Source of the DNA: Chloropicon primus | Taxonomy: Eukaryota | Direction of reading: 5' to 3' | Assembly: GCA_023205875.1 (NCBI GenBank) | Contig: CP060765.1 | Location: 558,001 to 622,000 of the forward strand | Length of the DNA: 64,000 bases | Part shown: piece by piece, positions 12,920 to 32,469 of the stretch | How positions within the stretch are numbered: the stretch's first letter is position 1 | Layout of the letters: every line of letters starts with the position of its first letter | Program-made: the position numbers and the translations under genes | The notes under the pieces: generated by a model | Seen by the model: the letters and a program-made list of their open reading frames with translations, nothing else | Told to the model about the DNA's origin: nothing | Databases searched by the model: none

Positions 12920-13335
12920 ACCACGCCCACGCACTTCTGTTTTGTATGTATACATGTAACGTAGGTCTGTCCAGGCATCCCCCTCCCCTCAGCCCAGTAC
13001 TATCGATGCTGGCAGAAGACGGGCGACGCTGGTGCGGGCAATGCCCATCCAAGAGACCTCCCTCTCCCCTCCTCTCCCCTGTCTGCTTCCCCCTTGGATG
13101 ATGATGATAGGCTGGGTGCTGTCCCTCAGTCCAGTCCAGTGGTGTGAGACTCAGCTGGCAGAAGACCAGAGTTGTTGGAGGTTTTCCCCTGTTGGTGGGA
13201 TTCCAGTGTATACCAGTTTGGTCACACCCAAAGGACAACCCACTAAGCGTTTTCTCGTGTTCTCACTTGCTGGACAAGGCCAATCTATAGTTACGAGGAG
13301 TTACGAGGAGGGCAGCGAGTGAAACCCTAACAGTC

Positions 13336-15507
13336 ATGGCGCGATCAGGGAAGCGCCGTAAGAAAAAGGAGAAGCAGGGGAGTGGCTCGACGAGTTCCAC
13401 AAGGAGGTCGCACTCTGGCGAGAGTCATGCTCAGGGCGCTTCGAAGTCGGGGCAGGAGTCTCCGACGACGGAGCGGCCGTTACTTCCGTTCTGGAATCAG
13501 GGCTTGCAGTTGCTCTACGCGTTGTGCCTGCTTCCTACCGCGGACGACCCCGCCTCTGCGGGTGAGGGTTCGAGCACGCCTCGCAAGAAGCGGGGGGGGA
13601 AGCGGAAGGAGAAGCCGCTGGACGACCCCGCCTCTGCTTTCGAGGAGGGTTCGAGCACGCCTCGCAAGAAGCGGGGGGGGAAGCGGAAGGGGAAGCCGCC
13701 GGAGGCGGACGCCTCTGCGGGTGAGAGTTCGAGCTCGTCAGGCAAGCCTCGCAAGAAGCCTCGCAAGAAGGGCAAGAAGAAGAACAAGAAGAAGGGCAAG
13801 AAGAAGAAGAACAAGAGGGGGAAGAAAGCAGGGAAGCAGCCGGGTGGCTTGGCGGACGACAGCGTGAAGAAGACCTGGTTCTCATCGATCAAGAGAGAAC
13901 TTGAAGAGGTAAAGTGTCCGAAGACGGGATGGAGGTCGTGCTTGAACCTTCCAGAAGATTCTGTGGTATCCGTCGAGACATTGCAGTCGCCCGCCAAAAG
14001 GAAGAGGGAGCAGAAACTGAAGACCTCCAAGCTATTGTCGGAGCGAACGGTGATACGGACGAGGAAGCTTAGGATGCGCTTGAACCCTGAGCAGGCGAAG
14101 TGCCTTTGCAACTGGATGGGAGCTGCGCGTTTCACATACAACAAGTGTTTGGAGGCGGTCAAGAAGGAGGGTTTTCCGCTGGTTTGGACCGTCCTGCTGG
14201 ACAGATTTGTGACGGCCAAACCGCGACGCCCTGAGGTCTTTGAGGGGCTGGAGAAAGAGCTGAAAGAAATCCAATGCTCTCCACGGCCATGGACAAAACA
14301 GGAGGCAGAGCTTTTCGCGGCCAGAGAGAAGAGACTCGAGAGCCAAATTGGAGGCAGACGATTTCGCGCCGAAGTGGCCAAGGGCCGGGACTACGTTAGC
14401 GGGGCCTTTGTGAATCAGGAGCATCCTTGGCTGAAGGAAACCCCCTGTGCCATCGGACAAGCTGCCGTGCGAAGTCTGATCAAGGCATGGGATTCGAACA
14501 TCGCGAAGCAGGAAGCGATGAAGGAGCGCGGCGAGGAGAAGGGGCACCGCTTCGTTCTCAAGTATCGTCAACGTCAGCAACCGAGTTCTTGGACTATTGA
14601 AATTGATGCAAGAGAGTTAAAGAACGTGGAGACGATCGAAAGACCGAGAACGAGGCACAAGGATGACACGAAGCACAAGAAACGACGCAAGTGGACCAAG
14701 CTGGAGGTGTTCAAGAAGAAGATGGCCGGCGGGCCCCTGTACTTGACGGAGGAGGTCCCCGGGGGCAAGATCGAGGGTGCCGTGAAGATCACAAGAAATC
14801 GCCTTGGGCAGTTCCACATGCACATTCCCATCGCGACGCCATGGGATCGCCTGCCACCCCTGAAGCCTGAGAACAAGCGGAAGGTTGTCGCCCTGGATCC
14901 GGGAGTCAGGACCTTTCAGACGTCGTACTCGCCGCAAGAAGGCGTCGGGGAGTATGCCAAGGGCGAGCGAGGCTTCGCGAGGCTGTTCAACCTCTGCTGG
15001 AGGATTGATGAGATCATTTCCGAGCGCAAAGACCCAAAGGTGAAGCTCCCTTACCTCGACCGCCGCGACTTGAAGAGACAGCAATACGCCTGCATGGAGA
15101 AAATTCGAGGTCTCACTAACGAGCTTCACAAAAAGGTAGCCAACGATCTATGCAGGAGGTTCGACACAATCCTCCTCCCGGAGTTCAAGTCCCAAGACAT
15201 GGTGAAGAAGAACAACAACGGGAGACGCCGAGTGATCAGGAAGAAGACGGCTCGCACGCTCTTGACGTTGAGGCACTATGCGTTCAGAACGTTCTTGGCT
15301 TCCAAGGTGCTCTTGCACGGCAGTGAGCTGGCGATCGTGACGGAGGAGTACACCTCCAAGACCTGTGGCAGGTGCGGACACATCAAGAAGAACCTGGGTG
15401 GAGCAGAGGTGTACAAGTGCCAGAAGTGTGGCTTCAAGTGCGGTCGGGATGTGAACGGGGCACGCAACGTCCTCCTGAAGCACTTGCGTCAACCAAAAAG
15501 TGTGTAA
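13336..15507 (+). CDS. Fanzor2 (eukaryotic TnpB-family) RNA-guided endonuclease, 723 aa, intronless
   Basis: N-terminal PFWN..LLPT..TWFS; RTRKLRMRLNPEQ..WMGAARFTYNKCL; HPWLKETP; RuvC-I VVALDPGVRTF (D521); RuvC-II ILLPEF (Pro615 at the canonical Glu) with downstream VTEEYTSKTC (E670); Zn finger CGRCG..CQKCG; RuvC-III GRDVNGARNV (D705). Confidence 0.93.
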   Translation: MARSGKRRKKKEKQGSGSTSSTRRSHSGESHAQGASKSGQESPTTERPLLPFWNQGLQLLYALCLLPTADDPASAGEGSSTPRKKRGGKRKEKPLDDPASAFEEGSSTPRKKRGGKRKGKPPEADASAGESSSSSGKPRKKPRKKGKKKNKKKGKKKKNKRGKKAGKQPGGLADDSVKKTWFSSIKRELEEVKCPKTGWRSCLNLPEDSVVSVETLQSPAKRKREQKLKTSKLLSERTVIRTRKLRMRLNPEQAKCLCNWMGAARFTYNKCLEAVKKEGFPLVWTVLLDRFVTAKPRRPEVFEGLEKELKEIQCSPRPWTKQEAELFAAREKRLESQIGGRRFRAEVAKGRDYVSGAFVNQEHPWLKETPCAIGQAAVRSLIKAWDSNIAKQEAMKERGEEKGHRFVLKYRQRQQPSSWTIEIDARELKNVETIERPRTRHKDDTKHKKRRKWTKLEVFKKKMAGGPLYLTEEVPGGKIEGAVKITRNRLGQFHMHIPIATPWDRLPPLKPENKRKVVALDPGVRTFQTSYSPQEGVGEYAKGERGFARLFNLCWRIDEIISERKDPKVKLPYLDRRDLKRQQYACMEKIRGLTNELHKKVANDLCRRFDTILLPEFKSQDMVKKNNNGRRRVIRKKTARTLLTLRHYAFRTFLASKVLLHGSELAIVTEEYTSKTCGRCGHIKKNLGGAEVYKCQKCGFKCGRDVNGARNVLLKHLRQPKSV
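13543..13780 (+). repeat. Tandem duplication (78 nt, 81 nt, plus a degenerate third copy) inside the Fanzor CDS
   Basis: DDPASAGEGSSTPRKKRGGKRKEKPL (13543-13620), DDPASAFEEGSSTPRKKRGGKRKGKPP (13621-13701), EADASAGESSSSSGKPRKKPRKK. Confidence 0.9.
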
Positions 15508-15681
15508 CTCCTCAGGGTTGCACATACGTTTGTTAGTACGGGCTGCCGTGCGTGGGCGGAAGTATTCGTTCATGTACGGTGGAATGGTCGTGGTAGGGCT
15601 GAATTACCCTGCCGAGAAACTTACAAACTCGGTGAAACGACCTTTGCAGAAAACTAACAGGTAAGTTGTGGCCGGTCTTCG
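15508..15681 (+). ncRNA. Candidate Fanzor omegaRNA (scaffold to about 15661, guide about 15662-15681)
   Basis: 18-bp hairpin 15543-15560/15565-15582 with 7 G-U pairs; multibranch domain 15586-15642; long-range stem 15529-15537/15653-15661; located directly 3' of the Fanzor CDS. Confidence 0.7.
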
Positions 15682-16021
15682 CTCTCCGTGTTTCTCTCTT
15701 TCAGTGGAAAGGAGAACTTGCCTTTGTGCTTCCAGTATTGACTGTGATTTTCTTACCGTCCTTTCGTGACTTTTCTGTGTGCTGTTTTTGATCTGATGTC
15801 TGAACACCATAACAAGAGTTGGTGAGGAGGAGGGCGGAGGGCAACGAAGGGGAGGGGAGCCATGAGGGAGGGGGCGAGAGGCGTTGCCCGGCAGGGAGGA
15901 GGATTCATTTTCATGCCCGTCGAGCCTTGGGTGGTGGCGTAGAACAAGACAGCGAGATCACAGGCAGAGAGAGAGACAGAGAGAGAGACAGAGAGAGACG
16001 AGAGACAGAGAGAGATTTTAG

Positions 16022-20388: not shown

Positions 20389-23300
20389 TCAGTCGTCCAA
20401 AGCGCACAGGGCCGCAGTGCCCTGCAAGATCCAGAAGTCTGGGTTCGTCTTCGGATCGATCGGCACGCTCAAGTTCAAGACGTAGTTCGTACTCTGTCCC
20501 GTGGTGCTCAGCACACCGGCACGAACCGAGGTCTTGTACAGGGGGCACTCGTAGTTCTCCTTGGGAGGAACGTAGTTCTCGATCGGCTCGAAGTGAATCA
20601 TGGGAAGGCCAGCAAACATGTTGCCGGGGCTGGACTCGATCAGCATCTTCTTCTCGAGGTCGAACTGGGCGCAGACCAGGAAGAGGCCGTGGATATACAC
20701 CCCGTTCTCCGGTGCGGATTCCAGGCCGTCCAAGGCGGTGATGTCGGTGCAGGTGAAGCCAAAGTTGAGCCTGTCGATGGCAATCTGGGTCTTCCTCGCG
20801 TGGTTCTGCAGGGCACCAGTCAGGAAACCCTGGGGGAAGAACAGGCCAGAGAGCCAGAAGGACTTGGGCTCCCCGTTGCAAAGCCAGTCGTCCATGAAAG
20901 CCACCCTCGCCATGAAATCCTTGACCCAGCCGGCCAAAGGCTTCAAGCTCGGGTAACCGTAGCGGTCCCACAACTGCGGCACCTGATTGTTGAGCATCCT
21001 CGTGAACATGAGATCAATGTCGCCACTCATGACGATGGTACCTTGGATCGCCATCTGAATGTCCTTGAGGGACTTGTTCAGGACCTTGATGAGCCTGTTG
21101 AAGCGATCCATCTCTTGGCCCAAAACCGTTCCCAGGGAGTTGGCCTGCCCGCTCTCCGTCACAGCGAAAGGGTTCCTCTCCTCGCTGGCGTTCTCCCTGT
21201 CGAGGATTCTCGGCATCTTTTCCTCGATTTCCTTGGCAAGCTCCGCCACAATATCCTCGCTCGACTTACCTCCGCTTGCGGTGGAGACCTGGGGCTGAAT
21301 GCTCAGCACGACGTCCACCACCTTCTTGCTCTCCTGCATCTGGAACTGCAAGGTGGCGTTATCGTGCATTCCAAAAATGTCTGGAGTGTCGGTGATGGGC
21401 AGGCCCCTGATGTACGTCTGGTAAGACTCCAAGTCGCCCTCCTCTGGGACCCTGTAGATTCCAGAAGGCGTGAGCTTGTACGACTCGTCCAAGACCTCTG
21501 GGTTGTAGTACTTTGCCAGGATGGACATGAGCAGCCTCCTGTCCAAGTCATCTGTCACCCTTCCACCGTAGTTAATCATTCCGGTGACATAGACGAGAGC
21601 AGGCCATGGAATGAAGTCCTGCTCGTCCAAAAAGTTCCTCAGCGTCATCATCGACGTCTCCAGGTCGCTGTTGCTGAAGTCGTAGGCCTTGTTCCAGCCA
21701 ATGGGTCCGAACTTTCTCCTCTCCTGGATCACGGCATGGAAGAAGTTGCAGGCAAACACGAGCTTCTTCCAGGGGGCTGGCTTCGTGCAGCTGTCCAGGA
21801 AGGCTGGGGGCTGGTCCGCGTAAGATCGCAGAATGTTGGCCCTGATTCCCTTGGGGGGCTCCATGGTCACCTTGATTCCGCTCTGCAGGACCGGCACCGG
21901 GAAGTGAGCCGCAGGCATCGACGTGAGCCACAGGCGGAACTCGTCATGAACGTCAGGATCGGTCTGGAGGCCCTCGACGATCTGCTCCATGCGGACCATC
22001 CAACTCTTGGCCAAGTGGCAGTTCTGCAAGCAGACCCAGTCCCCTGTTTCGGTCGCTTGCCTGATCCTCATCTCTGCGATAGGTCCCTGACCCTGACCCA
22101 AGGAAATGATGTGGAGACGCTCGCCGGGTATCCTGTCCTTGGTCACGGCGAACCTCTGCACCATGCCTGTTGGGTCCGCACCCGTGGAAAGGATGAAGAT
22201 GACCGGGGTGCTCTTGTTCGAGTCCTTGTACACCTCCTCAATGTTCAGCGGAGGAATGTCCGTGAACTCCTTGCCGAGGTTGTCCCCGATGTACCTCTGG
22301 ATGGAGAAAAGCAGGGAGTCCTCCCTGAAGATCTTTGTGAACAGAACCCTGTCAAAGTTGTCGATCCCTCCCTCCCCGAGGGCAGGGATGTCCGCATTCT
22401 GGGGCTCTTCTGACCTGAGGAAATCCTCCCAAGCCTTTGGGTTGGACTTGATGGTTTCCGGCAGGGCCTTCATAGAGTCTACCGAAGCCGAGAGACCCAG
22501 AACGTTCTGCCAAGCGCTCTTGGTCATCCAACCTTGGAGCTCTTGAGGCACCTCAATCTCCTCGTTTCCACCGACGGCTCCCCGGAGGAAGAAGTTCCAC
22601 TTCTCTGCCAAGAGGGTGCCCTCCTGCCTCAGGATCGACGAGCAGATCAAGAACGAGTAAATCGTCTTGTGGGCCTCGAAGAGACCTCTGCACACCATGA
22701 GGTACATGAAGCGGGTCGTGTAAGTCATCAAGTTCTCCAGGCGCTGCTCCACAGTGTCCGCCTTCTCAGACTCGTCGATGCAGTAGTTGAAAAGCTGGGT
22801 GAAGTAGGAGAGCGAGTACTGGTACATGGGATCGATCAGGGCGAGGTCCGCGATCACAAAGTAGAGGATGGATCCCCTGATTGGGGCGGGGCGCCATTCC
22901 TCACGAGCGGCGTTGATCTTCGCCTCTGTCTCCTCCGCTTCTTTCACACGACCGGCGATGACACCGGACGTCAGCTTGGAGTTGTTGAGGGTGTTGATAA
23001 GGACCTCGTCGTCCAGGATGTTGCCCTGGGACTCCTTGAGCAGCTTGAGAATCTTGTCCTCGAGGTCCCTCAGCTGCCTCTTGTCGTTCGAGATGCTCAC
23101 CACCAGCCTGTCTTTCTGCTCCTCCAGGTCCGGCCTCTCCTTCCTCACCAAGTCTCCCAAAAGCTGGTCCTCGAGACCCTTGAAGGTGACGGTGAAGTTG
23201 ATCAGAGTCACCTTGATGCAAATCTCCGGAAGGTAATGGGGGTTCGACATCTTTGTCGTCATGTAGAATCGGAAGTTCTCGTCATAGTCAACGTCGCTGT

Positions 23301-26300
23301 CACCGATTCTGATGAGACTGCGGTTGCCCTGCTTGAAGACCTGCTTCTGAAGGACTGGGTCCAAGGCAGGATCCAGGACCTCCCCGATGTCTTCCAGGAG
23401 CACGGGGCTTCCGATACGGATGCTGTTCTCAAGGGTACGCAAGAGGTTGGCATCCGTGAGCTTGATGGTCCTGAGCCCGTTCTTCGCCTGCATGGTCTTG
23501 ATCCACTTGTTGGCCTGAGACTGGGGGTCAATCATGAGCGGCCACCTCTTGCCTCGGGTCACGAGGATGCCATTGTCAACCGAGACATTGTCTGTCGGGA
23601 GGCCTTGGATGTTCCACTCCCTCACTTCGACGGCACTCGCGCAGACCTTCTGCAAAGTGAAATCGTCGCTTACAGGGATGTTGGACTCCTTGCACAGCTT
23701 CATCCAATCGGCGAGGATGTTGTTTCTGTACGACCCAGTGAAGGCACCCAGGTAAGAGATGTAGCCGGAAGCGTTGAAGACGTCTCCGATCAGCAAGACC
23801 ATGGACTCGGCAATCTGCTCTGCCGTTTCGTTCCATCTCACAGCCTCGTCTCCCAGCGCAGACGTAAGCTTTCCGGCCCTGGCGAGCCTCTTCTCGGACA
23901 AGTCAGCCTGGTCCTTGAGCTCCTTGAGCTCCGACTGCGACTTTTCGAGCTGGGCCTGGAGGCCATCGACCTTGTCCACGACTTCCTTGAGCTGGGCCTG
24001 CTTCTCGGCCAACGCGGCCTGCATGGTTTGCAGCTTGGTCTCCGCCTCCCTCAAAGCTTCCCTCTTTGGGCCCACGACCTTTGCGATCTTCGCGTAAGTG
24101 TCCATGGCGCGGCACCACATGCAAAGGCTCTTCGCCGCATTCGACTGCTTTGCCACGGCATCGGGCGTGAAGACAGGGTCTTCGATGTACTTCTTGATCT
24201 GCTTCAGGACCTTCTCGGGAATGTTGTCCTTGTCATAGTCGATCAGCTTGTTGATGAACTGGATGTCACCCAACACCTTCTTGGCAGAGTCCCAATCGGC
24301 TTTCTGCTGCAAAAGAATGCACACGACTTCCATGGTCATCCCCACGAGCGGTGGCGGGTTCTTAAAACCCTTGATCTCCGTGATGTCGCCCTTGTTCAGC
24401 GCATTCAAGGCCTTTGTCGCGCCTTCCAAAGCAGGCAGGGCCTGGTCAAGATCTTTCTGCGCATCATCCTTGATAGCCTGGGTCTCCGCCGTACTCTTGT
24501 CAACCTCCGCCGCTTCGGCAGAAACGACCTTCTTCACCTTTTCTGCCTCGGCCTTCTCCCCCTCGACCTCAGCGATCAGTTTGGTGGTGGACTCGGACTT
24601 ATCCTTCAGGATCGGCTGCAGCTTGTTCAGCTCCTCCTTCATCGTGTCAACGACCTCGTTGGTCTGCTTCAGTTTGTTCAAACCATTCACGAGACGGTCA
24701 CGAGAGATGGAATACTCCTCTCTCTTCTCCGCCAGGAGCTGGACGTACATGTTAATCAGGTCCAAGTAACTCTTTGGGGTGATGTAGTACTTCCTTCTCA
24801 GCTCACTGTAGAACAGCTCGTTCGCCTTGGTGATCGAGAGGTGCACATCCACGCACGCCCTCGCGACGGCCTTGTTGATCTCGTCGGACTCCAGCTTCAC
24901 ATTCGCGAGGTACTGCTCCGACACGGACAGCAAAGCGTCCTCGGGCCACTGGGAGTACCAGTCGATCGTGCAGCAGTTGATCAGAGATGGGAACTGCCTG
25001 CACCTGGCCCTGAAAGCTTCTCCGACCGGAGACATGCAGAGCACGATGTGCAGGTTGTCCCTGACCCTGTCCACGAAAGCTTGGTAGAGCCCGTCGCGGG
25101 ACAGCTGCATGCCCTGGTCATCACACCACTGCCTGATGTCAGCGATGCACTTCTCCTTCTCGTCGGACGTGTACATCCCTGGCACCTCCCCACTGTTCAG
25201 AATGTTGTTGACGTCCTCGACGAAGCTCTCGTCTGCGATCTGGTTGTCCGTGAACAGGAAGGCGAGGGGCGTGCCGTCGATTCCGGCCTTCTTGTAAAGG
25301 CTCTTGATGTCCTCCCTGAACTCGTTCAGCTTGTACCCCCTCTTCAGCTCGATCTGGAAGCACTCCGTGTCGCTCATGTGGCAGGCAAACCTCGTGAGGG
25401 ACTGCTTTCCGGATCCGCCCACGCCAACGAGCATGGCGTTACCCCTGGGCTGCCTCAGGACCCTAGCGAGCCTGTTGACGTGCTCGATGGCATCCCTGAA
25501 GAACACAAGGTTCATGGCGTTCGTGCTCGACATGTTATAGTCATCGAGGTAATCGATCAAGAGCTTCTTCACCTTCTCGAGCTCCTTTACCTCCTCGTAG
25601 ACCTTGTCCTCCCTATCGACCCCAAGACGAAGGTAGTCTCCGAACATAATCGGTTCGCTCTCAAAGTACTCCTCGTAAGACTCCGGGATGCTGAACCTTC
25701 CTCGAAGCATTTGGTGCATCATCTCCATCAACCACTTTTTGTCCTCGTCGTTGATGAGACGGTCGTGGAACACCCTCATGTTCTCGTGGGCCCACAACTT
25801 GGTGAGGACCTCCTTCTGCTGGCAGTTTCCAGGCTTGATGAGCAGGATGCCCTGGAAGACCTTGGAAATGTCTCTCAGGTTGAACGTATAGTGAGACTTG
25901 GTCGGCGTGGGCAGGAGCTCCGTGCTGATTCTGTTGTAGATCTCGATGGTGGAGTCCACCATCGGCTTCAAGAGGCCCTTGAACTCCGGAGGGAAGTCCT
26001 CCAAGAAGCCGCCGCAGATCGACGAGAAGATCTTTTGCATGACCTCCTCGCTCGGTTGCGGAACGTTCAGGAGGGCAAAATGCCTGACGAAGCGGGGGGT
26101 GATTTCCTGCCTTCCTCCTCCCGGTGGAGCGCAAGCAGTGCAAATCACGGTGTCCTCGATGTCCTTCCAGAACAGCTTCTTCCTGTCATAGAAGCCCTTG
26201 AAGTCCTGGAACTGCCTCAGCAGCTCCACCGGTGGCTGTGCGCCGTACGTCTCTCTCGCAGGCATGTTGACGTCGTCCACGAAGAGCACGAACTTCTTCC

Positions 26301-29300
26301 CTGGGGGAGCCCCAAATCTCGTCTTGCGCTTCTTCTCAAGCTTGGACTCGATGAGGAACTGGGTGTCGATCGCGGTCGTCTGGGCACTGAAGTTGGCAAC
26401 GATTGGCAGGATGTTCTTCTCCTGAGAAGTGCTGAGCAGGTTCATCGCGATCGCACTCTTGCCCACACCACTCTCTCCGATGAAGAGCACACTGTAGTTG
26501 ACATCCAGGAAGGTGCCCATCAACCAGCTGTACCTAGTCGTGTCCAGCGTCGGCACGAGGAGCTGGAAGTAAGGCACGTCCGACTTGTACTCAAAGGACT
26601 TGACGATGTTGCCCCACGGCTTGAATTCGAGCTCTTCGTTGATGTAGTAGTCATACAGCTGACCACCGGGAGGGAGGGAGCAGTTCTCCGAGAGCTCCTC
26701 GCGGGCGAATTCATCGAACTTCTCCCAGAACGTCTCGATCACGTTTCCTGAAACTCCCCAGACCAGGGAGAAGGCAAAGAGCTGTCCCAAGGCTCCCTTC
26801 ACAGTCTCGGTGTTGTTCTCCGCCGACCGGTGCGTTTCAAAGAATTGCAGAAGGAGGGATTCAATGACCTTTGACACCGTGGTGACGAGATTGATGTCCA
26901 CCGAGCCGATGTATTCCCTGCAATTCTTGCGAATGTACTGCAGGCAATGGTTGATGTGGGCATCGAAGAGGGCAAGAAGGCTCTGGCAAAGCTCCGCGGA
27001 GTCGGACGCCTTCTTCTCCAGCAGCTTATCCGCGAGGTGAGCAAGCCACGTCTGAATGTAGGGCCTCCACCCCGTCGTCTCAGCTGGGACGTAGACCATA
27101 CCGCATCGACTCACTGTGGCTGGAGACGCCACCGCGAGGTCCTGGACCTCGAAGAGCATCCTCATCGTCGTTGGGTTGAGCTTGATTCTCTCACCATTTG
27201 GCAAGCAAAGGGTGCAGTTGTCATCCAGCACGGTGTTCATGTTCTCGATCCAGATCGCGTCGACAGGGCCATCGAAGACCACCCACTTCTTGTCCTCCTT
27301 CGTGTCCGCCACGGCATTCCTGATCAGGGTCGATCCGAGGCCATCCGTCCACTCGTTGGTCAGAAGGTTGTACTCTCCGTACAGCTCTCCCATTTTGATG
27401 CACTTTGGGTTGAACACGTAAGTGTGCGTCTTCTGGAACGACTCGTTGGGGTTGTTCCTTTCCCTCAACAGGGTCATCGCAGCCTTCAACATCCTGTAGA
27501 TCTCGGTCTTGCCACCACCCGTGGGGCCCACAAGCATGACTCCAAAACGGACGTTGAACGTCTCGTAGAGCTGAATGACCTTCAAGATGAAGTCATCCAC
27601 CGTCTGGAGGGTGGCATCTGTCGTGCACTTCTCGATCGCAGTCTTCAGATCACCGTAGTCGTTGGCAGGCACCTCGACTCCAGGGAAGAGGTCCTTGACG
27701 ATCGCGTTGAAAAGGACGCAATCCTCCTCCAGGAACTTCGGGATGTTGCTGTCCCTCATGGCACGAATGAGGGTGATGTCCTCACTGAGGTTCGGCGAAG
27801 CACGCTTAAGACTGCCCGCCATGACAAGAACGGATTTCAAGGCACGCATACCGAAATCGTAGTGATCCTGCTGAGACAGCTGCTCACTCGACAGCTTGTA
27901 GAGCTTGACCATCTTTCTCGACAGAGTCTTGGCGTCCTCGAAGCCTTCGGCAAAGAGCATGACCTCGGCCACGAGCGCGTAATCTGGAATCATCATGGCC
28001 ACGTTCCTGAAGAGGGCCTTCAAGTTGTCAGGGAGCTCAGTTCTGCCCGCATAACCTGGGTTCATCGTGATGAACACGCCGCATGGGATGAGCCTGATCT
28101 CCCTGCCTTCGAAGACGAACTTGTTCACACCCGCCTTCATCGCGTTCTGAATCGTTAGCAGCTGCTGGGCGACCACAGAAAGCACCTCAATGTCAATTCT
28201 GTTGAACTCGTCGAAGCAAGCCCAAGCTCCGCACTGCGCGAGACCGGAGAAGAATTTGCCCATGAACTTGTAATCCAAGTTATCACCACAGTTGAACACG
28301 ACGCACTGGATACCCAAGGCTTTTCCCAAATCCTTTGTCGTCTCTGTCTTGCCAGTACCGGCTGGACCGGCTGGGGCTCCTCCCAGTTTCAGATGCAGCG
28401 CCCCGGTCAGGGTCATGTAGCACCTATCCGTCATTGGGGTCACGACCAGACGGGGCTGGGCACCAAGGTACTCGTAGCCGTAGACGAACTTCGCGTTGAC
28501 TTGGCGCACGATAATCGAATCCGTTTCTTCGCTCCAGTAGAACCTGAGCTGCATTTGCCAGCCGAAGTCTGAGATCTTGTGAATCTTTTCGCCGATCAGA
28601 TTGGACACTATGTCTCTGTTGTGGACGTCCAGGGTGATCAGGGTCACAAGGATCTTACGCTGAAGTTTCGTCAGGTCGGTTCTCACCAGCTCCGAAAGCA
28701 TGGCCAGGTTCTTGACGTTCTTCTCGAGGAAGGTCTCCAGGTCGCTTCCAGGGTTCTCCGAGTTTGGCGCAAGGCAAGCCTCAAGCTCCCCGCACCAATG
28801 GATGCTGTGACAAGAGAGAACGAGCTGGGCTGGCTGGGCCAGGATCCACTCTTTCCTCTCGCTGCTAGCATAGTCATTGTAGCCCTTTTTGCCCAACCTC
28901 TTGAGAGAGTTCTGCATGAAGGTCTCCACATCAGTGAGCCACTTCTCGATATTGCCCCTGGCCCTCAAGTTCTTTCCGAGGCTCACGTACTCGCCCTCGC
29001 CAGACTTCATGCCGAAAATGTCCGTGCTCTTTGGATCTTCCCCAAAGTCAAGACTCTTGATGCCGTCAAAGCACTTGGACATGTGCGGCTGAACGGCCTG
29101 GACGTTCTTGGTCTGCGAAAGGATCTCCAACAGCTCGTCGTTGGACAAGAAGTAGAAACGAGGGAAGCTCATCCTCTTCGTCTCCAAGTAGTCCTCGAGG
29201 TTCTTCTGGACCTTCTCCAAAGTCTCGTTGCTCTTTTGGAAGAGCTCGAGCCATCCCGGGGTGCTGCCCGCCTGCAAAGCGTTTCCGCGGTCCTTGGTCC

Positions 29301-32300
29301 TCCTCATGATGTCCTTGAACTGCTTATCCACCGCGAAGAACGCTTTCGACTCGTTTGGAAGCTGCCTCTGGATGTCCGCAGCGCTAAAGATGCTCTCGAG
29401 GTACATCCACTGCTTCTGGCACTCCAGCCACTCATCCAGGGTGTCAGAGAACAGGCGCAGCTGGTTGTTCAGCTTGTCCACCTCTGCGCGGATTCCGGTA
29501 ACGAATCGGCTGGCAAGAATGACGCTCATGGTCACCATGCTGTCCTCCAGGGCGGCTATGATCTCGTCCACGCCTCCCAGAATGAACGCATCCTTGAGCT
29601 CCTTGAAAGGAAGGACGGTGAACTCGATGTCCACCCACTTGTCGTTAATCTTCTTCAGCATGCCCTCAAGCGAGGCCTCTTGCGTGGCCTCCGTACTAAT
29701 TCTCGAGATGTCGTCCTTGAAGTTCTCCACGCTGAAGCTCATGAGCAAGCCGAGAGTGAAGGACTCGTCCCTGACGAGCTCTTGATTCATGACCTCCTGG
29801 ACTTTCTCCCAGTGCCTCTCCTTCATGTCCTCGTTTCTCAGGTTCTGCACGATTGGGAGGGTGTCCTTGAACTTGTACACCTTGTCCTTCAAGTTGTCAA
29901 CGACCTTGTTCATCGGAAGGCCCCTCTCGCACTTGAACACAAGCTTGGAGTACTTCATGATCTTCTCCTCCATGTCCGGGACATCCAACTTCTCGAACTG
30001 CTCTTGCTGCCACTTCTCTGCGACGGAGGACCAGGACACTGTTGCGTCCCACAGAGAGTGCTTCAGATCCACCTCCTCGCTGCAGGCGTCGAGGTCGTCG
30101 AACCTGGCCTCGGTGACTCTGAAAAGTCGCTGGTGCTTCTGAATGGTCTTCGCCTGCTGCTTCAAGTCAGCGACCTTGTTGACAAGGTCCTTGGTGTAGT
30201 CCCAGACCGTCTGAGTGTCCGACTTCTCGTCCAGTATTATCTCATTCTGAGCATGGAGCCTGATGTCAACCGCAGTCTTCGTGAGCTCATCGCAGTCGTT
30301 CTCAAGGACGGCACTAAATTTGGAGATGTACTCGTCCTTGGAAGCCTCGGCGACCTCAATCGAGTTCTTGAAGTTGCTGAAATCAGGACCAAGGGTCTGG
30401 TAAGCAGCGTGCTCGATGTCCGGCACCTTGATGGAGAACTCCTCGATGAGATCGTAGTGAGAGACCACCGCCACGTAACGGCTCTCGTAATTCTCCCTCT
30501 CCTCAGAGACCTTGGCCAAGAACTCAAGGAAGTCGACGAATTCCTCGACGGTGGAGGGAACGGAGCTCAGGTTCGAGTTCGCGTTACGCAAGTCCGACAC
30601 AAAGTCTCCGTAGCTCTCGCTGGCCAGCCTTGGCAAGAGCTCGCTGATCTCGTGGAGGCACCTCTGGGGCGAAGGCAAGAACTCGTTCTTGAGGCCCTCC
30701 ATGTTCACCCGAATGATTCCGTTGTCGTTGGTCGTGCTCAACGCCGTGATCTCCTCCAGCTGCTTCTGGTACAGGAGAACATCGTCCCTGAATATCTCCA
30801 GGGTGCGCTGTCCGTTCTCCACTTCCTTTCTCATGTCCGCAGAGTTCACGTCCCTGTTCTCCAGCACGATGTCCCTGTACGGCGCGAAGATCGTCTTGAA
30901 CTCCTCAGCGTCCTCAAAAGCAAGAGCCAGTGAGTCCTTCACTTCGCTGGCGAGGCCGTGGTACTTCTCGTCCGCGACGAGCTCTGCGATGGTGATGCTG
31001 ATCTCTATGTCCACGTTCTGCTCGATGAAGACCTTGAGCTTGTCGTGGGTGGGCAAGCGGATGACCGCTCCCATGACATCCAAGAAGCCTTCCAGAATGT
31101 CTTCCGCCTTTGCCTGGAAATCGTCCACGGAGGGCTTGAAAATGAGCTCGTCCTCCTCGTCCATCAGGATTTCGATCTCGAAGATCGGGGAGGATTGCTT
31201 CTCCACCACCTCGTCCAGCCTGGCGCTCGGGTGGCCCAGCACGTCGAGCACGCCGCCCACCGAGCCGATCAGGACGTCGTGGAGGGTGTCGCAAATCATG
31301 TAGTCCGCCAGCCTGATGTAATTGAACAGTTTGCGCTGCTCCGACCTCTTGGCCGCCGTGATGGCGTACGAAAACTTGTTCTCGTCCTCGATGCGCTGGG
31401 TGTTCTTGCCCATCTTCTTCTCCGTTGCCGTGGCCAAGAAGTCGCCCTCCTGCTCGCTGCCCTTTCCAAACAAACGTTCCTCGAGGATCTCAATAGCGGC
31501 GGAGCAGCTGTCCTCCACCGTCTCCACAATGCTGCTGAACAATTCCCCGAGCGTGTCCCTCACCACCTCCCTGCGCGTCACTTGCTTCTCGTAAAAATCG
31601 TCCAGCGCGTACAAGTTCTCCGTGTCGATGTCGTGCAAGGTCAGGTCAGAGAGCTCGTGGCAAAAGTTCCTGATCTTGAGCAAGCTCTTCTGGAACACTG
31701 GATTCAGGATGAACAAGTTCCTTTCGAGCATCTGCTTGCAGTGCCTCGTCTTCTTGTGCCTCACGCACTTCTTCCACGTCGCGAAGCCCTTCCAGAGCTT
31801 GTACTGCCTGAACACGTCCAAGTTAATGATTTGGTTGTACAGGTGGTACTCCCTCTTCCACTGGTCGAGGGGCGTGAACTCGGCCTGGCCATCGATGAAG
31901 TGGGTGACTCCAGCAGCGCTCATCGTGTAAAAGTGGTCCTCGTCAATGTCCGAGTGGTTCACCACCTCCAAGTCGTATGGGTTGTAAGCCAGGGAGTTGG
32001 TCTTCAGTGGGGCCAGGTAAACGAACTCCAAAGAGTCGTAGTGCTCGCGCAGCATGTTCAGGAAGGAGTACCAGGGCCTGGCCTCCTCGTCCATGCTCGC
32101 GATGCTCAATTGCCTGCCACCTGGCCCGCCAGCCATCTCCGTAGTCTCGTCTCCCGAGGAGCTCGACTCGTCCTGCCCCCTTATTTTTATGGGGTGGTCA
32201 ATGTCTCTCCCCTTCAAGTCTTGGCCGGTTTCGCCGGGCATCTTCGCCGCCGAGGAGCCCTGGGACGTGCCCCTCACCTTGGACTTCTTCGAGGACTTGA

Positions 32301-32469
32301 GCACCGGGAGCAAATTGCCTCGCTTCCCCGAGCGACCGAAGTTTGCAGACAGGGCCTTGGGCTTGAGCCTTCCCTTTTGACCCTTGGCCTTGACATCTAC
32401 AGACATGTAGAGCCCCCTCTCGAGCGGGTTCTTCCCGCTCCCGCTCGCCATCTCTTCCTCACGAGCCAT
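20389..32469 (-). CDS. Axonemal inner-arm dynein heavy chain (DNAH6-like), single exon, 4026 aa
   Basis: P-loops GPAGTGKTET, GPTGGGKT, GESGVGKS and GVGGSGKQS; CFDEFNRI; stalk coiled coil; C-terminal YECPLYKTSVRAGVLSTTGQSTN. Confidence 0.93.
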   Translation of the reverse strand: MAREEEMASGSGKNPLERGLYMSVDVKAKGQKGRLKPKALSANFGRSGKRGNLLPVLKSSKKSKVRGTSQGSSAAKMPGETGQDLKGRDIDHPIKIRGQDESSSSGDETTEMAGGPGGRQLSIASMDEEARPWYSFLNMLREHYDSLEFVYLAPLKTNSLAYNPYDLEVVNHSDIDEDHFYTMSAAGVTHFIDGQAEFTPLDQWKREYHLYNQIINLDVFRQYKLWKGFATWKKCVRHKKTRHCKQMLERNLFILNPVFQKSLLKIRNFCHELSDLTLHDIDTENLYALDDFYEKQVTRREVVRDTLGELFSSIVETVEDSCSAAIEILEERLFGKGSEQEGDFLATATEKKMGKNTQRIEDENKFSYAITAAKRSEQRKLFNYIRLADYMICDTLHDVLIGSVGGVLDVLGHPSARLDEVVEKQSSPIFEIEILMDEEDELIFKPSVDDFQAKAEDILEGFLDVMGAVIRLPTHDKLKVFIEQNVDIEISITIAELVADEKYHGLASEVKDSLALAFEDAEEFKTIFAPYRDIVLENRDVNSADMRKEVENGQRTLEIFRDDVLLYQKQLEEITALSTTNDNGIIRVNMEGLKNEFLPSPQRCLHEISELLPRLASESYGDFVSDLRNANSNLSSVPSTVEEFVDFLEFLAKVSEERENYESRYVAVVSHYDLIEEFSIKVPDIEHAAYQTLGPDFSNFKNSIEVAEASKDEYISKFSAVLENDCDELTKTAVDIRLHAQNEIILDEKSDTQTVWDYTKDLVNKVADLKQQAKTIQKHQRLFRVTEARFDDLDACSEEVDLKHSLWDATVSWSSVAEKWQQEQFEKLDVPDMEEKIMKYSKLVFKCERGLPMNKVVDNLKDKVYKFKDTLPIVQNLRNEDMKERHWEKVQEVMNQELVRDESFTLGLLMSFSVENFKDDISRISTEATQEASLEGMLKKINDKWVDIEFTVLPFKELKDAFILGGVDEIIAALEDSMVTMSVILASRFVTGIRAEVDKLNNQLRLFSDTLDEWLECQKQWMYLESIFSAADIQRQLPNESKAFFAVDKQFKDIMRRTKDRGNALQAGSTPGWLELFQKSNETLEKVQKNLEDYLETKRMSFPRFYFLSNDELLEILSQTKNVQAVQPHMSKCFDGIKSLDFGEDPKSTDIFGMKSGEGEYVSLGKNLRARGNIEKWLTDVETFMQNSLKRLGKKGYNDYASSERKEWILAQPAQLVLSCHSIHWCGELEACLAPNSENPGSDLETFLEKNVKNLAMLSELVRTDLTKLQRKILVTLITLDVHNRDIVSNLIGEKIHKISDFGWQMQLRFYWSEETDSIIVRQVNAKFVYGYEYLGAQPRLVVTPMTDRCYMTLTGALHLKLGGAPAGPAGTGKTETTKDLGKALGIQCVVFNCGDNLDYKFMGKFFSGLAQCGAWACFDEFNRIDIEVLSVVAQQLLTIQNAMKAGVNKFVFEGREIRLIPCGVFITMNPGYAGRTELPDNLKALFRNVAMMIPDYALVAEVMLFAEGFEDAKTLSRKMVKLYKLSSEQLSQQDHYDFGMRALKSVLVMAGSLKRASPNLSEDITLIRAMRDSNIPKFLEEDCVLFNAIVKDLFPGVEVPANDYGDLKTAIEKCTTDATLQTVDDFILKVIQLYETFNVRFGVMLVGPTGGGKTEIYRMLKAAMTLLRERNNPNESFQKTHTYVFNPKCIKMGELYGEYNLLTNEWTDGLGSTLIRNAVADTKEDKKWVVFDGPVDAIWIENMNTVLDDNCTLCLPNGERIKLNPTTMRMLFEVQDLAVASPATVSRCGMVYVPAETTGWRPYIQTWLAHLADKLLEKKASDSAELCQSLLALFDAHINHCLQYIRKNCREYIGSVDINLVTTVSKVIESLLLQFFETHRSAENNTETVKGALGQLFAFSLVWGVSGNVIETFWEKFDEFAREELSENCSLPPGGQLYDYYINEELEFKPWGNIVKSFEYKSDVPYFQLLVPTLDTTRYSWLMGTFLDVNYSVLFIGESGVGKSAIAMNLLSTSQEKNILPIVANFSAQTTAIDTQFLIESKLEKKRKTRFGAPPGKKFVLFVDDVNMPARETYGAQPPVELLRQFQDFKGFYDRKKLFWKDIEDTVICTACAPPGGGRQEITPRFVRHFALLNVPQPSEEVMQKIFSSICGGFLEDFPPEFKGLLKPMVDSTIEIYNRISTELLPTPTKSHYTFNLRDISKVFQGILLIKPGNCQQKEVLTKLWAHENMRVFHDRLINDEDKKWLMEMMHQMLRGRFSIPESYEEYFESEPIMFGDYLRLGVDREDKVYEEVKELEKVKKLLIDYLDDYNMSSTNAMNLVFFRDAIEHVNRLARVLRQPRGNAMLVGVGGSGKQSLTRFACHMSDTECFQIELKRGYKLNEFREDIKSLYKKAGIDGTPLAFLFTDNQIADESFVEDVNNILNSGEVPGMYTSDEKEKCIADIRQWCDDQGMQLSRDGLYQAFVDRVRDNLHIVLCMSPVGEAFRARCRQFPSLINCCTIDWYSQWPEDALLSVSEQYLANVKLESDEINKAVARACVDVHLSITKANELFYSELRRKYYITPKSYLDLINMYVQLLAEKREEYSISRDRLVNGLNKLKQTNEVVDTMKEELNKLQPILKDKSESTTKLIAEVEGEKAEAEKVKKVVSAEAAEVDKSTAETQAIKDDAQKDLDQALPALEGATKALNALNKGDITEIKGFKNPPPLVGMTMEVVCILLQQKADWDSAKKVLGDIQFINKLIDYDKDNIPEKVLKQIKKYIEDPVFTPDAVAKQSNAAKSLCMWCRAMDTYAKIAKVVGPKREALREAETKLQTMQAALAEKQAQLKEVVDKVDGLQAQLEKSQSELKELKDQADLSEKRLARAGKLTSALGDEAVRWNETAEQIAESMVLLIGDVFNASGYISYLGAFTGSYRNNILADWMKLCKESNIPVSDDFTLQKVCASAVEVREWNIQGLPTDNVSVDNGILVTRGKRWPLMIDPQSQANKWIKTMQAKNGLRTIKLTDANLLRTLENSIRIGSPVLLEDIGEVLDPALDPVLQKQVFKQGNRSLIRIGDSDVDYDENFRFYMTTKMSNPHYLPEICIKVTLINFTVTFKGLEDQLLGDLVRKERPDLEEQKDRLVVSISNDKRQLRDLEDKILKLLKESQGNILDDEVLINTLNNSKLTSGVIAGRVKEAEETEAKINAAREEWRPAPIRGSILYFVIADLALIDPMYQYSLSYFTQLFNYCIDESEKADTVEQRLENLMTYTTRFMYLMVCRGLFEAHKTIYSFLICSSILRQEGTLLAEKWNFFLRGAVGGNEEIEVPQELQGWMTKSAWQNVLGLSASVDSMKALPETIKSNPKAWEDFLRSEEPQNADIPALGEGGIDNFDRVLFTKIFREDSLLFSIQRYIGDNLGKEFTDIPPLNIEEVYKDSNKSTPVIFILSTGADPTGMVQRFAVTKDRIPGERLHIISLGQGQGPIAEMRIRQATETGDWVCLQNCHLAKSWMVRMEQIVEGLQTDPDVHDEFRLWLTSMPAAHFPVPVLQSGIKVTMEPPKGIRANILRSYADQPPAFLDSCTKPAPWKKLVFACNFFHAVIQERRKFGPIGWNKAYDFSNSDLETSMMTLRNFLDEQDFIPWPALVYVTGMINYGGRVTDDLDRRLLMSILAKYYNPEVLDESYKLTPSGIYRVPEEGDLESYQTYIRGLPITDTPDIFGMHDNATLQFQMQESKKVVDVVLSIQPQVSTASGGKSSEDIVAELAKEIEEKMPRILDRENASEERNPFAVTESGQANSLGTVLGQEMDRFNRLIKVLNKSLKDIQMAIQGTIVMSGDIDLMFTRMLNNQVPQLWDRYGYPSLKPLAGWVKDFMARVAFMDDWLCNGEPKSFWLSGLFFPQGFLTGALQNHARKTQIAIDRLNFGFTCTDITALDGLESAPENGVYIHGLFLVCAQFDLEKKMLIESSPGNMFAGLPMIHFEPIENYVPPKENYECPLYKTSVRAGVLSTTGQSTNYVLNLSVPIDPKTNPDFWILQGTAALCALDD

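Follow-up and report, generated by a model that had tools for sequence, protein, structure and literature searches.

The 64,000-nucleotide (nt) stretch of the Chloropicon primus genome considered here (assembly GCA_023205875.1, contig CP060765.1, positions 558,001 to 622,000; the window hereafter, numbered from its first letter) contains, among ordinary eukaryotic genes, a 2,642-bp non-autonomous element that carries the gene for a Fanzor2 RNA-guided nuclease. The enzyme family and the algal element are already published. What appears to be unreported is a splice donor at the predicted junction between the scaffold of its guide RNA (omegaRNA) and the guide, which is supported by sequence comparison and by branching in RNA contigs only. 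The element and its protein-coding features are as follows.

13173..15814, + strand: 2,642-bp non-autonomous element with a Fanzor2 gene and no transposase (scan for ends, contig depth, contig ends)
13336..15507, + strand: Fanzor2 open reading frame (ORF), 723 amino acids (aa), intronless (matches in Pfam and the Protein Data Bank (PDB), fold match)
13480..13539, + strand: residues 49-68 (PFWN..LLPT), initial segment of the Fanzor2 N-terminal domain, predicted to be folded (confidence about 90 over residues 51-70)
13540..13869, + strand: residues 69-178, K/G/S-rich tandem-repeat insertion, predicted disordered, with basic runs resembling nuclear localization signals
14896..14904, + strand: RuvC-I, D521-P522-G523
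15178..15180, + strand: P615, at the canonical RuvC-II Glu position
15343..15345, + strand: E670, alternative RuvC-II Glu, in the region of ApmFz2 E467
15364..15450, + strand: CxxC..CxxC zinc finger and RuvC-III D705

The original prediction described an uninterrupted, intronless ORF of this length encoding a Fanzor2, and each residue, motif and coordinate that it named was found in place: D521 at 14896, P615 at 15178, E670 at 15343, D705 at 15448, zinc-finger cysteines C677/C680/C695/C698, and the motifs PFWN, LLPT, WFS, RTRKLRMRL and GAARFTYN. Domain searches returned TnpB-family matches from Pfam (Cas12f1-like_TNB, E 9.9e-18; HTH_OrfB, E 7.7e-7) and TnpB-family NCBIfam matches scoring under the family cut-offs, and the closest PDB relative by sequence is 9b0l (ApmFz2; E 2.7e-19). 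Alignment A1 combines the core with 114 of 120 listed homologues (115 rows; four same-species rows and two fusions omitted). All 115 rows carry D521, P522, G523, E670, the zinc-finger cysteines, R704 and D705, and the P615 position holds P in 114/115. DPG, an alternative Glu (here six residues ahead of the zinc finger) and Pro or Gly at the canonical Glu position are the published Fanzor fingerprint (PMC10711439; alternative Glu also in PMC10530073), and all three are present. AlphaFold confidence (predicted local distance difference test, pLDDT) is 88 for the core and 80 at full length. The full-length model has ApmFz2 (mimivirus, PDB 9B0L; an IS607 Fanzor2) as its top structural match (Z 24.1, root-mean-square deviation 4.0 Å, 433 residues), with the same D/E/D arrangement and a compact TnpB-like core preceded by an N-terminal RuvC-R/thumb domain. 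Model residues 49-719 align to 9b0l 53-516, whereas TnpB entries align from residue 237 only; PFWN..LLPT and WFS therefore belong to the Fanzor2 N-terminal domain, in agreement with the original prediction. Sequence identity to ApmFz2 is about 21%, and the algal protein differs in a disordered 110-aa insertion that interrupts its N-terminal domain and is made of 81-nt repeats (pLDDT <50 over residues 71-176). GC content at third codon positions is 0.74, similar to that of neighbouring genes (0.70-0.82). The product is almost certainly a Fanzor2* in the published sense. We infer catalytic competence from its intact residues, which are retained in 17/17 aligned C. primus copies (one 307-aa truncated member is not in this set, and 15 of the 46 cluster members were listed).

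The region past the stop codon folds far better than its shuffles (z = −5.0; 0/200 shuffles), and the following RNA-level features are placed there.

15500..15660, + strand: predicted omegaRNA scaffold, 5' end uncertain
15500-15525, 15527-15540 and 15543-15582, + strand: hairpin, pseudoknot hairpin and 18-pair stem of the scaffold, with further stems
15532..15537, + strand: first pseudoknot strand, GTTAGT, located in a loop of 8 nt (single descriptor match; in the register of viral loci L022, L036, L041 and L045)
15653..15660, + strand: second pseudoknot strand, ACTAAC, followed by AG; remnant of an IS607 right end (TANC-GG) and predicted scaffold end
15661..15666, + strand: 5' splice site GTAAGT, whose first base is the predicted guide +1; the only AG|GTRAGT in the element
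15661..15814, + strand: 154-nt pyrimidine-rich end segment, likely removed as an intron or part of one (sequence, RNA contigs)

Placement of the scaffold end draws on a pseudoknot known from ApmFz2, in which a 5' loop pairs with scaffold positions −4 to 0 (PMC11832414). A motif search in 69 viral loci recovered a recurrent end close to TANC-GG, with which hairpin loops near the stop codon pair through covarying letters. This was cast as a descriptor (a hairpin loop G-N-T-A pairing with T-A-N-C before N-G) that matches 20/69 viral loci, compared with 2.2 in shuffles, and 41/70 bacterial loci. For three bacterial families with multiple copies, the match coincides with the exact point of divergence in 15/16 copies. 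The window has a single match, with 6 bp and its C at 15658, for which shuffles give 10/3000, or 1/3000 with GT next. A 6-bp pairing in the register of the family is predicted at the scaffold 3' end, where ApmFz2 also has its pseudoknot, and the minimum-energy fold of the exon part alone is closed by the GTTAGT/ACTAAC pairing. Position −1 is variable in nature, as illustrated by Microcoleus copies that end TATC-TG. Because the predicted pseudoknot places it there, the scaffold likely ends at 15660, 154 bases before the element end, in contrast to ApmFz2, and 15660 is likely the old IS607 end, as judged from sequence comparison. Several observations weigh against this placement. In 16 other bacterial loci (4 groups) the descriptor failed to find the end or put it in the wrong place, two Poribacteria loci (L212, L219) share about 40 nt past the pseudoknot strand, the descriptor was fixed after the window had been seen and is partly post hoc, the end motif alone is not significant in the window (263/500 shuffles), and the pseudoknot hairpin stem has just 3 bp. 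A weight matrix of the end motif by itself did not single out 15660, and a second end candidate, AAACTCGG at 15625-15632, was set aside, being without a loop partner. The 3' regions of L212 and L219 end in CAG, unlike those of other pro-Fanzor elements.

Contigs from RNA-type runs change at exactly this position. Those of X3, X4 and X5 stop at 15660, RNA contigs overall stop or branch at 15660-15663, and contigs of X3, X4 and X7 pass from 15660 into four different foreign sequences. DNA contigs of X1 run through to 15666, and among the loose ends listed for X1 and X2 there is none at 15660. Depth after compared with before the donor is 105 versus 1888 in X4, about 170 versus 1280 in X5 and 1523 versus 8050 in X3, which are drops of about 5- to 18-fold, compared with 1.5-fold in DNA run X1 (3198 versus 4700). 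X3, X4, X5 and X7 represent four studies by code; X3 is labelled 'DNA?' and was read as RNA because, over the neighbouring transporter gene, its contig terminates at the point where the intron of that gene branches. Downstream of the donor, the end segment has no AG in its last 79 nt and a branch-like CTGAT at 15793-15797, and no joint was seen at its internal AGs, 15703 and 15734. No published report of a splice site at a Fanzor scaffold end was found in the accessible literature; figures 4A/S3 of PMC10711439 and the supplements of its preprint could give the boundary.

A number of points count against splicing into an adjacent flank. The runs are assembled contigs whose RNA label is a guess and for which depth is a poor measure. 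Within the four RNA-type runs, no acceptor joint leads from 15660 to any place up to 16400, and the three of four joined sequences that were searched for are absent from the window. The joined sequences are coding-like and could be ordinary distant host exons, in which case the guides would target the host. All of those listed begin G, GT or GTA, as expected from lists of loose ends that are partial and biased to sequences matching a few further letters. Moreover, at most one of three listed DNA flanks that start with AG (15816) can begin AGG, so most do not use an AG placed at the first two duplication bases. Among the contigs examined, flank 15824-15900 has no RNA-type cover, which is uninformative. 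A 15662-to-13778 joint was considered as back-splicing and rejected as a low-complexity match, and a DNA flank consensus that matched one spliced sequence was dropped, since it mixes three contigs.

Two further contig forms were observed. In X4 and X5, a deleted and diverged form (window position 13939) jumps from the ORF to a right end TAAC-GG followed by GTAAGT, that is, a canonical IS607 end and then the same splice site. An X3 contig matches 15721-15780 and continues as foreign sequence after ...TGTGT-AG-G; this may be a truncated copy that now provides a host gene with a splice acceptor.

Capture by a transposon whose target duplications vary confronts a Fanzor with two problems, how to keep a fixed target-adjacent motif (TAM) and how to obtain a guide from beyond the new transposon end. 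A Fanzor benefits its element only through a flank-derived guide, which is established for TnpB (PMC13565253, PMC10690162). A splice site at the scaffold-guide junction would, if the following scheme is true, solve both problems. An IS607 Fanzor2 would have been captured, old right end included, inside a TGTT...AACA element that an integrase-type enzyme moves in trans. The pseudoknot would set the scaffold end at 15660, and the spliceosome would excise the element end, ligating the scaffold at the first AG of the flank that can serve as acceptor; alternative acceptors could supply several guides from one copy. Because every acceptor ends in AG, the genomic match of the guide would always follow an AG, which would act as a fixed TAM despite variable duplications (the TAM of MmeFz2 is TAG; PMC10432273). 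The enzyme would make its cut a short way downstream of the insertion, and the element would be retained or copied when the break is repaired from the filled chromosome. Splicing is proposed to bring in the guide because scaffold end and flank lie 154 bases apart and an efficiently used donor stands exactly at guide +1. We advance the whole mechanism, in which the element end is spliced out and the scaffold becomes joined to host flank that serves as guide, as the best of the explanations considered, though tentatively and as somewhat short of probable; the narrower proposition that an intron starts at guide +1, that each copy has a locus-specific guide and that the acceptor AG doubles as TAM is held with slightly less confidence.

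Weak support for the mechanism comes from four sources: the AG-free 79-base end, AG bias at insertion sites, 20-21 extra bases at some of these sites, and conservation of RuvC. Among duplications sampled without bias, 4/5 contain AG (p 0.02), and in a larger set of about 28, at least 6 start with AG (p 0.013). The RuvC and zinc-finger regions vary less among copies than WED/REC (12/204 versus 32/272 sites, p 0.04). Supplementary Data 8 of PMC6731263 lists three heterozygous 2.66-2.71-kb insertions with the same ends (rows 49, 94 and 201), and the left terminus sequence also starts an insertion row there. Two of these rows carry, in addition to the 5-bp duplication, 20-21 bases on the guide side, near the Fanzor cut position (PMC10432273), and the third has a shift of 3 bases instead of 5. 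The three stand among 225 rows of that table, none as a deletion, and the extra bases are possibly cut scars, longer duplications or caller artefacts. The counterweights are that the extra bases were read by eye from partial cells, with a caller artefact or longer duplication possible, and that the synonymous excess among copies is not significant (28 listed variants, 10:18, p 0.08). In addition, an AG inside or beyond the duplication leaves TAM and target in the filled allele, and the enzyme would thus cut its own flank.

An accidental origin of the splice site through the IS607 preference for GG is plausible and also weighs against the mechanism. In its full form, this explanation holds that an ancestral IS607 inserted at the GG core on an exon-intron border and was captured together with a piece of intron, so that splicing only finishes the mRNA or swaps in harmless guides with the wrong TAM, the nuclease has no useful target, and the element spreads passively. 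IS607 inserts at GG (PMC10711439, PMC13565253), which G|GTAAGT would have supplied; the resemblance of the joined sequences to coding exons, the tolerance of about 25 expressed copies (PMC6731263) and the weakness of within-species selection all agree with it. It leaves unexplained why catalytic residues are intact in 17/17 copies and in relatives of 52-59% identity with several full-length members, as well as the AG bias and the 20-21-base extras, and we regard it as fairly unlikely.

Another explanation is a long, unspliced omegaRNA, as has been proposed for this family (PMC10711439). In that account the accessible text has no internal scaffold end or splice site, and element ends and duplication are proposed as scaffold parts. 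The scaffold would run to the element end, where the right-terminus TAAC (15810-15813) could form a 4-bp rival pseudoknot with loop GTTA; the duplication would lie in the scaffold, the flank would be the guide, and splicing would compete. Freeing the strands is cheaper in unspliced RNA (5.1 versus 8.6 kcal/mol), unspliced read-through into flanks is present in X3, and the 20-21-base extras are accounted for too. Nevertheless, this explanation is unlikely: the 6-7-bp pairing inside the element is the stronger of the two and is the one that closes the minimum-energy fold of the exon part; the base at position 0 would be something other than G; the end segment is missing from most long RNA; and a variable duplication yields no fixed TAM. 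It is very improbable that the unspliced start of the intron serves as a constant guide aimed at a virus or other mobile element. Such a guide would directly follow the scaffold and be common to the copies, although they differ at guide positions 7 and 9, it has no exact 20-nt match in the viral contig collection, and it is lost from most transcripts.

The splice-guide mechanism invites comparison with IStrons (IS605/IS607 elements with a group I intron; PMC10690162), in which a splice site likewise overlaps the omegaRNA end and pseudoknot region. There, the site is the 3' site of a self-splicing intron and splicing destroys the guide, whereas in the alga a 5' site for the spliceosome lies at guide +1 and the guide would be brought in by splicing. 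The algal element has no enclosing group I intron; Rfam gave no match to the element RNA below E 1.8, group I introns included. If the mechanism is true, the element is a spliceosomal counterpart of IStrons with the opposite outcome, and Pol II transcripts could be converted into guides through splicing, which would be a new way of programming such enzymes. The roughly 25 copies in a cultured alga provide natural replicates, and an exact predicted scaffold of 161 nt is defined.

The remaining features concern the vehicle and the sequence ahead of the gene.

13168..13172, + strand: left target-site duplication AGAGT, 5 bp, identical to 15815-15819
13173..13179, + strand: left end of the element, TGTTGGA, which matches integrase-type TGTTRNR and forms a perfect 4-bp inverted repeat with the right end
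13322..13330, + strand: AAACCCTAA, directly ahead of the ATG, presumably telo-box-like and a candidate only (sequence)
15808..15814, + strand: right end of the element, CATAACA, which matches YNYAACA (contigs terminate at 15814 and differ in the flank behind)
15815..15819, + strand: right target-site duplication AGAGT, identical to 13168-13172

Ends at 13173 and 15814 with the AGAGT duplication were proposed by a scan for duplications plus inverted ends. In X1, depth climbs from about 150 into the thousands within the bin that contains 13173, and contigs terminate at 15814 with several different flanks behind. On these grounds another candidate pair of ends (12958/15570; 11-bp inverted repeat, CATGT duplication) was rejected. 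The inverted repeat matches at 7/12 positions overall. The element extends 163 bp ahead of the ATG and 307 bp past the stop, and these flanks of the ORF hold no serine recombinase TnpA, which sets it apart from ApmFz2. IS607 elements end at a GG core and have no target duplication; the algal element has a 5-bp duplication and TG...CA ends, and only the relic right end at 15653-15660 is of IS607 type. Degenerate inverted ends, a target duplication and the lack of a transposase are those of the Fanzor2* vehicle. The termini match the LTR (long terminal repeat)/integrase consensus TGTTRNR...YNYAACA and Ginger TGTNR ends. Ginger2/Tdd elements share TGTNR ends and a duplication of 4-5 bp, which is 5 bp in Tdd-4/5; they differ in inverted repeats of 50-180 bp instead of 4 bp, and the algal element has no integrase gene. 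No autonomous partner with a Gypsy-like integrase occurs in the examined part of the published annotation. We favour a DNA element that is mobilized in trans over a solo LTR of a copia-like retroelement, which is a separate question from that of the guide. Both ends and the 5-bp duplication would suit an LTR, as would the GT-rich 3' part and an inverted repeat of only 4 bp, well under the 40-270 bp of Ginger. We consider a solo LTR unlikely, given that no tRNA primer site or paired LTR was found among the flanks listed, the two published locus lists hold no adjacent copy pairs as far as listed, heterozygous insertions have single-element length, and the examined part of the published annotation has no retroelement gene.

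An X5 contig links 13288 to 15751 through other sequence, and in X1 a different sequence precedes 15751. Another element likely shares ends 13173-13288 and 15751-15814, and could be an autonomous partner or a Fanzor-less sibling. A metagenome scan with a 21-nt right-end pattern gave only a chance match in an unrelated AT-rich contig.

The locus is one of about 25 near-identical copies of an already published element and not a new discovery. An intact algal Fanzor2 between host genes, as first claimed, is real, but it is not a lone insertion; the ORF and residues had been described correctly, whereas the element ends, target duplication, copy number and RNA element had been overlooked. The protein falls in a 46-member cluster whose named members are C. 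primus 'putative IS605 transposase' from many chromosomes. PMC6731263 reports 25 such genes, 23 of them with strong mutual-type matches, at RNA depths of 19-88. The family corresponds to the Fanzor2* of PMC10711439 and the preprint 10.1101/2023.08.09.552727, which describe a transposase-less element with degenerate inverted ends, a variable 5-nt duplication and a partner enzyme unidentified there, and which list near-identical proteins. The published C. primus element agrees with ours in these respects, with proteins 94-99% identical. In an alignment of 13 near-full-length copies (A2), 361/630 informative amino-acid site pairs fail the four-gamete test, and the copies are therefore mosaics, as from gene conversion between dispersed copies. 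By gene number, 22/23 strong-match loci of one strain have a counterpart among the listed loci of the other in published locus lists; five loci occur in the second strain's list only, which indicates recent movement.

Acquisition from a giant virus, suggested in the original prediction, is unsupported. A quick tree built from 130 RuvC/zinc-finger regions places the two Chloropicon rows together with seven metagenome proteins (SH-aLRT (Shimodaira-Hasegawa-like approximate likelihood ratio test) 96), and 0/68 viral-contig rows fall in that clade, although deeper forks are weak. The best segments in viral and prokaryotic scans have about 40-47% identity. Metagenome relatives reach 51-59% over most of the core and include several full-length members; no DNA of the 52-59% identical relatives was found in the viral or prokaryotic collections. 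From these comparisons, a viral donor is neither shown nor excluded. Two metagenome proteins that branch near the Chloropicon clade (P0028, P0074) have an XPG/Exo1-like nuclease domain fused to Fanzor2, as a real fusion or read-through; their Fanzor2 part keeps DPG and has DES(L) in the alternative Glu region.

The flanking genes encode a MOSC protein, a TPT/UAA transporter (with a GT-AG intron), an MA3 protein and a dynein heavy chain, and are ordinary eukaryotic genes. Six neighbours and 19 other long ORFs scanned gave no transposase or viral family match. A contaminant or misassembled segment, raised earlier as a possible objection, is ruled out because an X1 contig (12400-13196) passes from unique flank into the element. 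C. primus is coccoid and is not known to have flagella. The dynein heavy chain is encoded by a single ORF of 4,026 aa (20389-32469, − strand) in a stretch of lower GC content.

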